Assembly (NCBI GenBank): GCA_000743035.1
Contig: CP008939.1
Coordinates: 90,001 to 122,000, forward strand
Length of the DNA: 32,000 nt
Direction: 5' to 3'
From: Candidatus Paracaedimonas acanthamoebae
Lineage (GTDB): Bacteria > Pseudomonadota > Alphaproteobacteria > Caedimonadales > Caedimonadaceae
Below the pieces are notes generated by a model, which was not told where the DNA came from, ran no database searches, and was given only the letters and a program-made list of their open reading frames with translations. Made by a program: the position numbers and the translations under genes. Positions 14,634-18,783 of this stretch are shown in pieces. Within the stretch, counting starts at the first letter, position 1. Every line of letters starts with the position of its first letter.

Positions 14634-16471
<1,838 letters not shown>

Positions 16472-16566
16472 TGAACCTCAACCTCCTCTCATGAGGAAAT
16501 TGTACCATCAGTGGGTGTATCATTTTTCAGCCGCTGATCTGTATCATTTTACATCCGTCGCTAACA

Positions 16567-16924
16567 CCAGCATTACCCTTGCTTTTAACCTTAAATCTCT
16601 TCTGCATTTTAGCGACAATTCTATGCGCTCGCATCAGTTTTGCCACACGATGACGGCTGCAAGAGATACCTTGCAAAATGAGTGTCGCATGAATGCGAGG
16701 GCTGCCATAAATCCCCCGGCTCTCTTCATAGGCTGTCTTAATAGCTTCAAGCAATTGAGCATTCTCACGGGCTCTCTTGCTTATCTTTCCTTTTGTATAG
16801 GAGTAATAGCCGCTTCTGGATACTTTAAAGACCCTGGACATCCGCTCAATCGTAAAAAGATGAGAATGGTGCTTCATAAAAGCAAACTTCATTTGCGGAC
16901 TGATGAGAATATGCCCAACGCTTT
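16567..16924 (-). pseudogene. IS3-family OrfB, N-terminal piece (HTH_21-type region)
   Basis: SVGHILISPQMKFAFMKHHSHLFTIERMSRVFKVSRSGYYSYTKGKISKRARENAQLLEAIKTAYEESRGIYGSPRIHATLILQGISCSRHRVAKLMRAHRIVAKMQKRFKVKSKGNAG, then the IS21 end. Confidence 0.75.
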
Positions 16925-16925
16925 C

Positions 16926-18290
16926 CTAAGAAACTCCCTGTACCAAGTCCTGCATTTTATTCTCTTGCAATATATAACCTAAAGCAGCAGCTCGCTTTGA
17001 TAAGTTATCAAGAACCCGCTTTTGATATCGTGCCTCATAGTAATTGGCACCTGGATCAACATATTGCATTCCATAACGCAGAGCATTAAAAAATAATACT
17101 GCCATTTTTCTAGCTGTTGCAGTAATTGCCTTTGATTTACCAATGCGAGCCGAGAGTCGTCTATAAAACGCACCAAGAGCCGTATTTGTCTTTCCAATTG
17201 TTACAGCAGCCAATCTTAATGCTGCTGCCGCACGACTTGAGGAACGCCGTGTTCGTGATGATAATACTTTCCCTCCTGATACCTTATTCCCTGGAGAAAG
17301 ACATAGCCAAGAAGTAAAGTGCTTGCTGCTCGGCCAGCGAGACATATCAGTGCCACATTCTGATATTAATTTTAAGGCTAATGAAGGTCCAACACCGTGT
17401 ATTTGTGTTAAGTCCATTCCTAATGCTTGGTAAAGGGATGCTCTTACATCAAAGCTTAAGCTATTAGGTTGTTTAGTGCGATGCCTGGCTTTGGGTAGAG
17501 GTTGATCAGGCAACTTATTATCTTTTCCAAGCAAGCTTAATGTCTCTTCTATTCGACGATCACACTCATTAATTTTTTGTGTGTAATAATCGAATAATTC
17601 AACAGCTTGAGTTAAAGAAAACAAATGCTCTTCTTGATAATTACCCTTTAAGGATTCCTCAATAGTTTTAATGGATTCCTTACAACGTATGTCTCTATGT
17701 TCTGCTAATACAGCAGGGCAACGTTCACCATTCATAATCGCACGAATGATCTTCATGCCTGTGGCTCCCGTTATATCCGATACGACATGATGCAACTGTA
17801 AGTTCATTTGCATTAAAGCTTTTTGCATATGCTGGATATGAGAGGCTCTGAATTCAAGCATACGTTCACGTTGTCTAATATAAGCACGTAGCACAGTAAT
17901 TTGTTTTTCTGGTCTGAAGCTAGCACGTAACAAACCAAATTGATGTAACCGTTGAATCCATTGCGCATCATTGACGTCTGTTTTACGTCCAGGAACATTT
18001 TTAGCTTCTCGTGGATTAACTAAAAATACCTCAAAACCATAATTCTCTAAGATCTCAAAAGCAGGAATCCAATAAATACCTGTGGATTCCATAGCAATGC
18101 TGGTGACCTCACAGCTTTTAAGCCATTTTGCCATAGCATGTAAATCTGTGGTAAAACTTTGAAACGTACGAACTGGTTCTTTTGCTTTATCACTCCCTAC
18201 AGCAACAACGTGAAACTTAGCACCAATATCAATCCCAGCAGCATTTTGATGAATAATTGGCATACTGGATTGTCTGTTAGATTGAGTCAT
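16926..18290 (-). CDS. IS110-family transposase/recombinase (DEDD domain plus C-terminal Ser domain)
   Basis: AAGIDIGAKFHVVAV, SIAMESTGIYWIP, GRKTDVNDAQWIQRLHQFGLL, ...IHGVGPSLALKLISECG..., CLSPGNKVSGGKVLS. ATG at 18290 (the track starts at GTG 18293) is preceded by AAGGAGAAGAGG. Confidence 0.9.
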   Translation of the reverse strand: MTQSNRQSSMPIIHQNAAGIDIGAKFHVVAVGSDKAKEPVRTFQSFTTDLHAMAKWLKSCEVTSIAMESTGIYWIPAFEILENYGFEVFLVNPREAKNVPGRKTDVNDAQWIQRLHQFGLLRASFRPEKQITVLRAYIRQRERMLEFRASHIQHMQKALMQMNLQLHHVVSDITGATGMKIIRAIMNGERCPAVLAEHRDIRCKESIKTIEESLKGNYQEEHLFSLTQAVELFDYYTQKINECDRRIEETLSLLGKDNKLPDQPLPKARHRTKQPNSLSFDVRASLYQALGMDLTQIHGVGPSLALKLISECGTDMSRWPSSKHFTSWLCLSPGNKVSGGKVLSSRTRRSSSRAAAALRLAAVTIGKTNTALGAFYRRLSARIGKSKAITATARKMAVLFFNALRYGMQYVDPGANYYEARYQKRVLDNLSKRAAALGYILQENKMQDLVQGVS

Positions 18291-18293
18291 CAC

Positions 18294-18523
18294 TTACCTC
18301 TTCTCCTTGTTTATCTATAGAATCAAAGAGCAGGGTAACGAATAAATCACTTTCCTAAACGGGGTTTGTACCTCCAATGCCGGGTTCGTTGTACTCCCTG
18401 GACCATGTTTTTTAACGGGGTAATCCACCAATAAGCAGACGGCCGCTCTCTTTGATAGCTCAACTTTAGCAGTTAACGAGCGCGAGTTTCTATTTATTAG
18501 GGAAAGGGGTGCCATTTAGGTGG
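18294..18523 (-). ncRNA. Candidate bridge (guide) RNA in the 5' non-coding arm of the IS110-family element
   Basis: 230 nt without a credible ORF, visibly G+C-richer than the surroundings. ACCCCGTT occurs twice (18421-18414, 18365-18358); each copy runs into a 9-mer identical to one insertion junction. A long-range stem pairs ATCAAAGAG (18456-18448) with CTCTTTGAT (18330-18322). Exact RNA ends are unknown. Confidence 0.45.
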
Positions 18524-18783
18524 TTTTTTAAGATATCTCGCTCCTGGCGTAAAATCTCGTTCTCTCGCTTGAGTTGTCTTATATCCTGGTCTTGAGAAGA
18601 TGAACTCTCACTCTTTATAAATGCTTTATCTTTGTGAGTTCTATATTCTTTCATCCACTCATGAAGAGTTGATTTACTAACTCCTAAATCACGGCTCGCA
18701 GCTGCCAGTGATGTTGTGCCTCCCATGATGAGCTGTACTGTATTTAATTTGAACTCTTGATCGTATCGTTTCCTTAAATTCAT
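18524..18783 (-). pseudogene. IS3-family OrfA, cut at its 3' end by the IS110 insertion
   Basis: MNLRKRYDQEFKLNTVQLIMGGTTSLAAASRDLGVSKSTLHEWMKEYRTH...IRQLKRENEILRQERDILK. The frame then enters the IS110 end (NHLNGTPFPNK is not IS3-derived). Confidence 0.8.

Follow-up and report, generated by a model that had tools for sequence, protein, structure and literature searches.

A probable bridge-type guide RNA in the left end of an IS110-family element inserted at an IS3-family frameshift motif

The element and its insertion site

The DNA analysed here, called the window throughout, is a stretch of 32,000 nucleotides (nt) from Candidatus Paracaedimonas acanthamoebae (assembly GCA_000743035.1, contig CP008939.1, positions 90,001 to 122,000 of the forward strand). 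It holds a complete and intact insertion sequence (IS) of the IS110 family, about 1.6 kb long, which is inserted inside an IS3-family orfA gene at an A7G frameshift motif. A previous reading of the letters alone, referred to below as the sequence-only reading, had proposed that the non-coding arm of this element is of the bridge-RNA type, with two segments identical to the insertion junctions. Its strings and coordinates, all on the minus strand, proved correct when checked by script and by eye. The element, its parts and its target are as follows.

16923 to 18523, minus strand: IS110-family element, delimited by comparison with the empty site, by ends that are the same in the related loci L001 and L002, and by the dimer junction of locus L005
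16926 to 18290, minus strand: recombinase gene, 454 amino acids (aa), with DEDD_Tnp_IS110 and Transposase_20 domains; its stop codon TAG lies inside the right end
18291 to 18523, minus strand: left non-coding arm, about 230 nt, carrying the putative guide RNA
18524 to 18783, minus strand: left part of the target, an IS3-family orfA (Pfam HTH_Tnp_1) ending ...RQERDILK at the A-run; P0122 and P0123 are uninterrupted homologues
16527 to 16922, minus strand: right part of the target, assigned with Pfam, consisting of the orfA end (...ALGIFSSVRK, stop at 16891-16889) and the orfB start in the -1 frame (HTH_21), cut short at 16527

The left end of the element begins with CCACCTAAATGG, its first base being 18523, and the right end closes with GTTTCTTAGG, its last base being 16925; L001 and L002 have identical ends. 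The right end is essentially the recombinase stop codon, as the terminus lies 1 nt past it. Between the two ends of the window copy, the only inverted match is 5 bp long (CCTAA, IS bases 4-8, with the terminal TTAGG), and it is not kept in L009-type relatives. No further copies of the element were found within the window.

Uninterrupted IS3 relatives read TTAAAAAAAGCG across the empty site. In uninterrupted orfA relatives the DNA is GATATC-TTAAAAAAA-GCGTTGGGC, with seven A's (A7) and colinear with the window flanks; the same DNA is also written GATATC-TTAAAAAAA-GCGTTGGGCATATTCTC. The window junctions carry 6 and 3 A's, that is, nine together against seven in the empty site, so that exactly two bases, AA, are common to target and element. 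The insertion therefore has a dinucleotide core, AA, and target-site duplication is absent. The element contains one copy of this core, which may be placed either at 16924-16923 or at 18525-18524. The site is partitioned accordingly into a left target (LT) ...TCTTAAAA, the core AA, a right target (RT) AGCGTT... and the IS itself, CCACC...CTTAGG; the natural target is TTAAAAAAAGC (as one string, GATATCTTAAAAAAAGCAGTTGCC), and the donor string is ...GTTTCTTAGGAACCACCTAAATGG... At the right junction, which the sequence-only reading had divided into the IS end TTAGG and the flank AAAG, the letters were right, but the A7 of the empty site imposes another partition: TTAGG (IS end), AA (core) and AG (target).

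Uninterrupted orfA relatives end ...RDILKKALGIFSSVRK, and the insertion point corresponds to the slippery A-run of the IS3 -1 frameshift between orfA and orfB. The orfA and orfB frames are compatible only with A7, a reading of the sequence that is borne out by the empty-site comparison.

A natural head-to-tail tandem dimer of a related element is present in Mycoavidus cysteinexigens (L005:1160-3050). Its internal junction, GTTTCTTAGG-AA-CCTCTTAAGG, is the predicted donor junction in which the right end (RE) and the left end (LE) abut on the core, RE-AA-LE.

The recombinase matches Pfam PF01548 and PF02371 (a RuvC-like DEDD domain at the N-terminus, and a C-terminal Tnp domain that holds the catalytic Ser), as well as NCBIfam NF033542, 'IS110 family RNA-guided transposase', with 268 bits for a cutoff of 140. 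Its similarity to the IS621 structure 8wt6 is remote (E = 6.7e-8), and both domains align. Residues D21, E68, D105, D108 and S338 are invariant across 36 recombinase homologues. More than 8000 homologues are found in the database at E <= 0.001; relatives at 60-80% identity are present on 222 plasmid records, annotated merely as 'IS110 family transposase', and the identical protein is recorded from Candidatus Paracaedibacter symbiosus. An identical recombinase is encoded on two contigs from unrelated samples, where the IS3 variant is another one (right flank AAAGCAGTTGCC...) but the element lies at an unchanged position, in agreement with the recurrent flanks that the bridge-RNA proposal implied.

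Guide segments and their covariation with DNA

The arm is richer in G+C (44.3%) than the window (36.6%) and the transposase gene (39.5%), as had been noted. It had also been said to contain no credible open reading frame (ORF). A mechanical ORF of 66 aa (MAPLSLINRN..., 18315-18515, minus strand) does span the arm; yet it overlaps the RNA structure supported by covariation that is described in the next section, and is probably spurious. Three segments of the arm stand in relation to the DNA of the insertion.

18407 to 18415, minus strand: left target guide (LTG), UUAAAAAA; same sense as the top strand of LT (TTAAAA) and core AA, then C, the first IS base
18350 to 18358, minus strand: left donor guide (LDG), UUAGGAA; same sense as the right end TTAGG and core AA, then AG, bases 1-2 of RT
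18433 to 18438, minus strand: right target guide (RTG), CUGCUU; part of the target-loop 5' side (18439-18431), and top-strand complement of core position 2 and RT

The first two segments are those of the sequence-only reading, which had pointed out that TTAAAAAAC occurs both at the left junction (18531-18523) and in the arm (18415-18407), and TTAGGAAAG both in the arm (18358-18350) and at the right junction (16929-16921). Both of these internal 9-mers are preceded by ACCCCGT, and the octamer ACCCCGTT is indeed found twice, at 18421-18414 and at 18365-18358.

Could such matches arise by chance in an A+T-rich genome? TTAAAAAAC is not rare: counted on both strands of the window, the two 9-mers have 5 and 4 copies, against 1.66 and 0.79 expected, and the other copies lie in unrelated contexts. 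The expected counts translate into some 0.006 and 0.003 occurrences in one strand of the 230-nt arm, that is, about 2e-5 jointly, before the common CCCCGT frame is counted, and the same relation recurs in dozens of independent loci. We consider the likelihood of coincidence negligible, and the comparative data have already refuted it.

These comparative data come from 80 related loci. In scans on 35, 34 and 41 non-redundant loci (by fixed offset and by alignment column), every RNA position was compared with every DNA position, with permuted loci as a control. In about 40 non-redundant relatives, each of the three segments follows the DNA of its own element, with z = 5-9, and there are more than 15 different specificities in which the guide segments change with flanks and ends. 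For the LTG, the scans give a clean same-sense diagonal (identity 0.8-1.0, z = 6-9 against permuted loci). Across the 80 loci, comparing the 10 nt that follow the conserved CCCG with the left junction of the same locus gives 9-10 identical positions out of 10, and the segments concerned are wholly different between loci, for example ACCCGTAGCA, CTTAGGAGCT, GTGCAAAGCA and ATATATAAC. In the L005 dimer, the LTG is reprogrammed to AUAUAUAAC and the left flank is CTTATATAA.

The LDG likewise gives a same-sense diagonal (z = 6-8 against permuted loci). What follows the second CCCG is the sequence of the right end and core, and it changes with the right end: TCAGG is found with CTCAGG, TCGATAG with GTCGATAG, and TGGGGAG with GTGGGGAG. 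The core itself varies between AA and AG, in step across the LTG, the LDG and the junctions of relatives. The two 9-mers of the sequence-only reading thus correspond to the bottom-strand guides LTG and LDG, and their covariation with flanks and ends, a consequence of the bridge-RNA proposal, extends over dozens of relatives.

The RTG is a newly found third guide, situated 5' of the LTG and immediately 5' of the conserved UGG(U/A)GG. In the scans it appears as a four-column antiparallel diagonal, the complementarity covering core position 2 and RT bases 1 to 3 or 4 (RT1-RT3/4), and a register test counts 3.66 Watson-Crick pairs, compared with 2.01 for permuted loci (z = 8.4). Among relatives, ACGAUU pairs with AATCGT, GGCUUU with AAAGCC, and GUCUU with AAGAC, while CUGCUU has its perfect match in A-AGCAG, the L001/L002 site. 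A compensatory three-way switch at short range is seen in L090 and L091, which are 79-80% relatives of the window element: where the window has A at RT1, GCUU in the RTG and AG as the two bases after the LDG (LDG+2), these loci have G, GCCU and GG, respectively. The window also contains two unoccupied TTAAAAAAAG sites (25410 and 24942, minus strand), in which the core is followed by AGT or AGA and not by AGC. This fits a requirement for the RTG; the upstream context of these sites differs too.

RNA structure and the proposed guide RNA

The three guides are embedded in a structure that is conserved among relatives, with the following parts.

18324 to 18456, minus strand: structured core of the bridge-type RNA, within outer stem P1; covariance model match
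18448 to 18454, minus strand: P1 5' strand CAAAGAG, pairing with CTCTTTG at 18330-18324
18324 to 18330, minus strand: P1 3' strand CTCTTTG
18440 to 18444, minus strand: P2 5' strand GGCCG, closing the target-binding loop and pairing with UGGUC
18401 to 18405, minus strand: P2 3' strand UGGUC
18416 to 18430, minus strand: P3, distal hairpin of the target loop, UGGUGG-AUUA-CCCCG
18385 to 18398, minus strand: 5' strands of the donor-loop closing stems (helices 4 and 5), GGG (18398-18396) and AACGAA (18390-18385)
18377 to 18384, minus strand: 5' side of the donor loop, CCCGGCAU
18360 to 18376, minus strand: P6, distal hairpin of the donor loop, UGGAGG-UACAAA-CCCCG; helix 6, 99% paired, double changes at 5 pairs
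18333 to 18342, minus strand: 3' strands of the donor-loop closing stems, UUCGUU (18342-18337), AC and CCC (18335-18333)

The RNA consists of two similarly built modules inside the outer stem, each with a loop bounded on one side by a closing stem and on the other by a UGG.G...CCCG hairpin. The structure was tested on an alignment of 34 arms, against slid controls. In the six helices, 89.4% of the cells are paired (37-49% in the controls), the covariation score is 0.316 (about 0.09), and 107 cells show double changes (22-39). Helix 1, or P1, has double changes at all 7 pairs, with GGAAGGG/CCCTTCC in relatives; the closing stem that the sequence-only reading had drawn between ATCAAAGAG (18456-18448) and its reverse complement CTCTTTGAT (18330-18322) is therefore real. 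P2 is 100% paired, and one of its pairs is GC in 23 cases, UA in 6 and GU in 5. In the donor module, GGG pairs with CCC and AACGAA with UUCGUU, a pairing specific to the window that is taken from its sequence and the model alignment; covariation of the 5' side of this loop with the donor was not seen in the alignment-column scans. RNAalifold recovers P2, P3 and P6 unaided.

A covariance model built from 33 relatives, the window being left out, has a single match in the 32-kb window, at 18324-18456 on the minus strand (95 bits, E = 1.3e-21, full length), and in 52 of 55 other loci it has a match upstream of the recombinase gene. Two matches, 1613 nt apart, are found in the L005 dimer. Double arms also occur at L076, where two identical arms with identical upstream flanks (1246 and 3966) are separated by 2720 nt, and at L077, where a distance of 1871 nt separates two differing arms (1142 and 3013). 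Repeated targets or adjacent insertions may account for them.

A structured RNA upstream of a gene may also be a 5' leader that regulates translation, here of the recombinase, in which case the junction matches would be incidental. The layout is compatible with this, as the structure ends about 30 nt before the recombinase start codon and the ribosome-binding site comes after it. A leader, however, would have no reason to carry guides that change with flanks and ends over more than 15 specificities, and we regard this explanation as extremely improbable. It is also conceivable that the segments act as DNA, the internal junction copies serving as protein-binding or decoy sites for the recombinase; they have the same sense as the junction DNA, and no convincing promoter was found for the arm in pattern scans. 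The compensatory changes in the six surrounding helices indicate selection on an RNA fold, however, and the RTG is complementary, not identical, to its DNA partner. Homologous systems, moreover, were shown to operate through RNA. A role as DNA sites thus seems highly improbable.

We conclude that the left arm very probably encodes a structured guide of about 135 nt, of the bridge-RNA/seekRNA kind, which the 454-aa DEDD/Ser recombinase would use to choose both of its partners by base pairing. This reading is based on the observed element, ends and core, on the covariation between guides and DNA, on that of the RNA structure, and on site specificity. Following the mechanism published for the family (PMC11208160, PMC11208158, PMC11187229), the arm would be transcribed and its RNA bound by the recombinase, recombination would proceed via a circle, and strand exchange at the AA core would insert the element, free of duplication.

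Several observations weigh against this conclusion. Pairing between the window RTG and its own site (A-AGCGT) is imperfect, with four Watson-Crick pairs and one G.U. An Rfam scan of the arm, with E up to 10, returned no relevant match, only noise, and pattern scans revealed no convincing sigma-70 promoter in the arm or across the modelled circle junction. Folded alone, the 230-nt arm does no better than shuffled sequences in minimum energy (z = -0.86). Of the suggestion that folding and a covariance model would bring out a bridge RNA, the second part holds, with the 95-bit match, whereas the single-sequence fold is unremarkable and unlike the conserved structure, for which reason the comparative structure was used. 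The order of the guides is the reverse of that in the only IS110-type systems solved both biochemically and structurally, so that details of synapsis cannot simply be transferred. Lastly, no consistent register for a right-donor guide (RDG) emerged, either from an exact reverse-complement search or from the covariation scans on 35, 34 and 41 loci. The search gave patchy matches 3' of the LDG only (for example GAUGGUU in L010, and UGACGG in L033, L047 and L048) and no convincing one in the window, and inspection by eye of the donor-loop 5' side and of the stretch 3' of the LDG showed no consistent register. Nor did we obtain a robust signal for an IS621-style handshake beside the RTG, in which the adjoining bases are complementary to positions 6-7 of the non-cognate DNA: the RTG is followed on its 3' side by A and U (18432-18431), and left donor (LD) positions 6-7 are GG.

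Another feature concerns the bases that follow the bottom-strand guides. Both the LTG and the LDG extend 1-2 nt over the crossover, in the same sense as the partner DNA. The second base after the LTG (LTG+2) tracks the second IS base, or right donor (RD) base RD2, with z = 4.9 overall and identity in 16 of 16 loci in a distant clade; the first base after the LDG (LDG+1) tracks the first right-target base RT1 (z = 5.1), L090 and L091 having GG beside AA|GG. In the window, the LTG extension matches at just one of its two bases. The C that follows the LTG and the AG that follows the LDG are a conserved feature and not a coincidence. As they match the partner DNA across the crossover, the sequence-only reading saw segments identical to whole junctions. 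More speculatively, their role might be to stabilise the product of the exchange, or to assist in the reading of integrated junctions at excision.

The question then arises as to whether the bottom-strand guides are in fact tuned to the integrated junctions (LT-core-RD and LD-core-RT), with a main role in excision or circle formation, and with the right donor half read by the protein or by invariant RNA bases. The extensions just described, which match the first IS bases on one side and RT1-2 on the other, argue for this possibility, as does the missing RDG diagonal; published work shows excision substrates binding across both loops, and recognition of the donor arm can suffice according to it. 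However, the extensions are merely 1-2 nt long, the one following the window LTG is half matched, and most of each guide reads LT and core or LD and core, exactly as in the insertion model. In addition, an RDG made of invariant bases would escape a covariation analysis. We therefore hold tuning to the junctions to be unlikely, and retain the guide RNA that selects target and donor as the explanation of the arm.

Targets of relatives and comparison with known systems

Among about 33 loci with an AA core, 17 sit at ...ERDILK|K of IS3-family OrfA genes. The relatives at ...ERDILK (61-69% identity) belong to the Alpha-, Beta- and Gammaproteobacteria. One of them, L086 (3835-3860), is a 69%-identical relative on a plasmid of the Enterobacterales, NZ_CP022697.1 of Citrobacter farmeri, located at ...DERDILK of an IS3-family OrfA. 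The right end of this copy is cut at GTTTCTCAG|TAAGCGTGC, where it adjoins an IS66-family element.

AA-core relatives away from the ...ERDILK motif carry changed guides. For five of them the target was examined, the reading frames in high-G+C flanks being picked by hand and checked with Pfam, as longest-ORF calls were misleading. All five lie at other A-runs, in the part of transposase genes that encodes the N-terminal HTH; some targets are of the IS630 type (...SFKK|K, ...DFKK|V), others are different IS3-family OrfAs, and one group is oppositely oriented. This last group comprises L009, L024, L028 and L032, with the left junction TCTAAAAAA, the right junction AATCGTTCTCCAG, the LTG UCAAAAAAC and the RTG ACGAUU, inserted at the leucine-zipper end of an HTH_Tnp_1 OrfA (...ELTLEN|DFLEGAL). 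Its A-run is a T-run on the coding strand and is thus not a frameshift site.

Two observations concern other insertions into the IS3 target. In Ca. Paracaedibacter symbiosus, P0121, another OrfA of the same IS3, is 100% identical through ...RDILKN and continues with FLKKSSFPS*. Apparently the same codon has been interrupted a second time, by a left end that is different but related and resembles the L089 left end CTTCCTAAAGA..., which would encode N-F-L-K. In the window, the IS3 orfB fragment (16527-16892, minus strand) ends after 121 codons, and an IS21-family istA starts some 55 nt further on.

15437 to 16471, minus strand: IS21-family istA, rve domain
14634 to 15497, minus strand: ORF overlapping istA

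The window IS3 copy thus seems to have received two insertions, that of the IS110 element and that of an IS21-family one, as nested insertion sequences in an endosymbiont genome.

Since the element homes to the IS3 -1 frameshift motif, and relatives home to A-runs in IS630-type genes, each insertion disables another insertion sequence. The target is a multicopy, mobile and non-essential site, and the situation amounts to transposon-on-transposon parasitism in an IS-crowded endosymbiont genome. The RNA is not named in any database, and as Rfam has no family for it, annotation pipelines overlook it.

On a wider scale, we tentatively propose that these elements may form a large unnamed IS110 lineage, with 450-aa recombinases and an AA or AG core, in which a left-end bridge RNA mirrors the IS621 design, has no programmable RDG, and carries bottom-strand guides that read across the crossover (a 'bottom-strand handshake', or junction reading). 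If so, the lineage would connect the IS110-type and IS1111-type guide RNAs in evolution, it would imply a different order or geometry of strand exchange, and it would be a specialist parasite of programmed-frameshift A-runs in IS3- and IS630-family transposase genes. Bridge RNAs and seekRNAs are the basis of a new class of programmable recombinases, of which, to our knowledge, only a few orthologues are structurally understood, all of them IS621-like. A different loop layout, an AA core and an apparently different reading of the donor would widen the design space for recombinase tools, and the lineage offers a natural test of which IS621 features are essential (guide order, handshake position, RDG).

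The sequence-only reading could not assign the element to a described IS, and the present analysis could not assign a named one either. The passages considered of the ISfinder table in the supplement of Durrant et al. contain distant relatives only, ISAfe3, ISAisp4 and ISCARN97, all labelled LE/IS110, and the HFTSWL motif of the clade does not occur in that table. The IS621 bridge RNA belongs to the IS110 group (Durrant et al. 2024, PMC11208160; Hiraizumi et al. 2024, PMC11208158), and the present system resembles it in many respects: a DEDD/Ser recombinase, a guide RNA in a long left non-coding end upstream of the gene, two loops for target and donor, insertion without duplication, bottom-strand guides of 8-9 nt that include a dinucleotide core, and a top-strand right-target guide of 4-6 nt. 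Unlike IS621, it has a recombinase about 125 aa longer (454 aa against the 328-residue solved chain), which is only remotely similar; its core is AA instead of CT; one outer stem encloses both modules; no RDG and no handshake dinucleotide by the RTG were detected in the searches described above; and the LTG and LDG continue for 1-2 nt into the DNA of the partner. The guides are also ordered differently: the LTG (18415-18408) comes after the RTG (18438-18433), and the LDG too occupies the 3' side of its loop, whereas IS621 has the opposite arrangement, according to both the text and the RNA sequence, the supplement giving AUCGGGCCU before UUGCGUAG (PMC11208160).

In IS3-family genes, the DDE codons are the target of ISEc21, an IS110-type element with a seekRNA (Siddiquee et al. 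2024, PMC11187229), so that homing of an IS110-type element into other insertion sequences is already known. The two systems share a guide in the upstream non-coding region, a conserved target in IS3-family transposase genes, and natural reprogramming among relatives. They differ in that the target here is the A7G frameshift motif at the orfA/orfB boundary; a search of the available literature found no report of IS110 elements targeting the IS3 frameshift motif. In ISEc21, moreover, the bottom-strand complement comes before the top-strand complement, an order that it shares with IS621 and that is reversed here.

The present order, with the top-strand complement 5' of the bottom-strand complement, is that of the IS1111-type seekRNAs or bridge RNAs (ISEc11, ISKpn4, ISPa11). 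These, however, are encoded in a long right end downstream of the gene for the recombinase, whereas here the RNA is upstream and the right end amounts to the stop codon. IS1111-type elements also have subterminal inverted repeats of 7-17 bp, against the 5-bp CCTAA/TTAGG match of the window element. In summary, the mechanism is a known one, and the lineage is an unnamed one, which differs from the systems above in its architecture, as tested here, and has a distinctive target.

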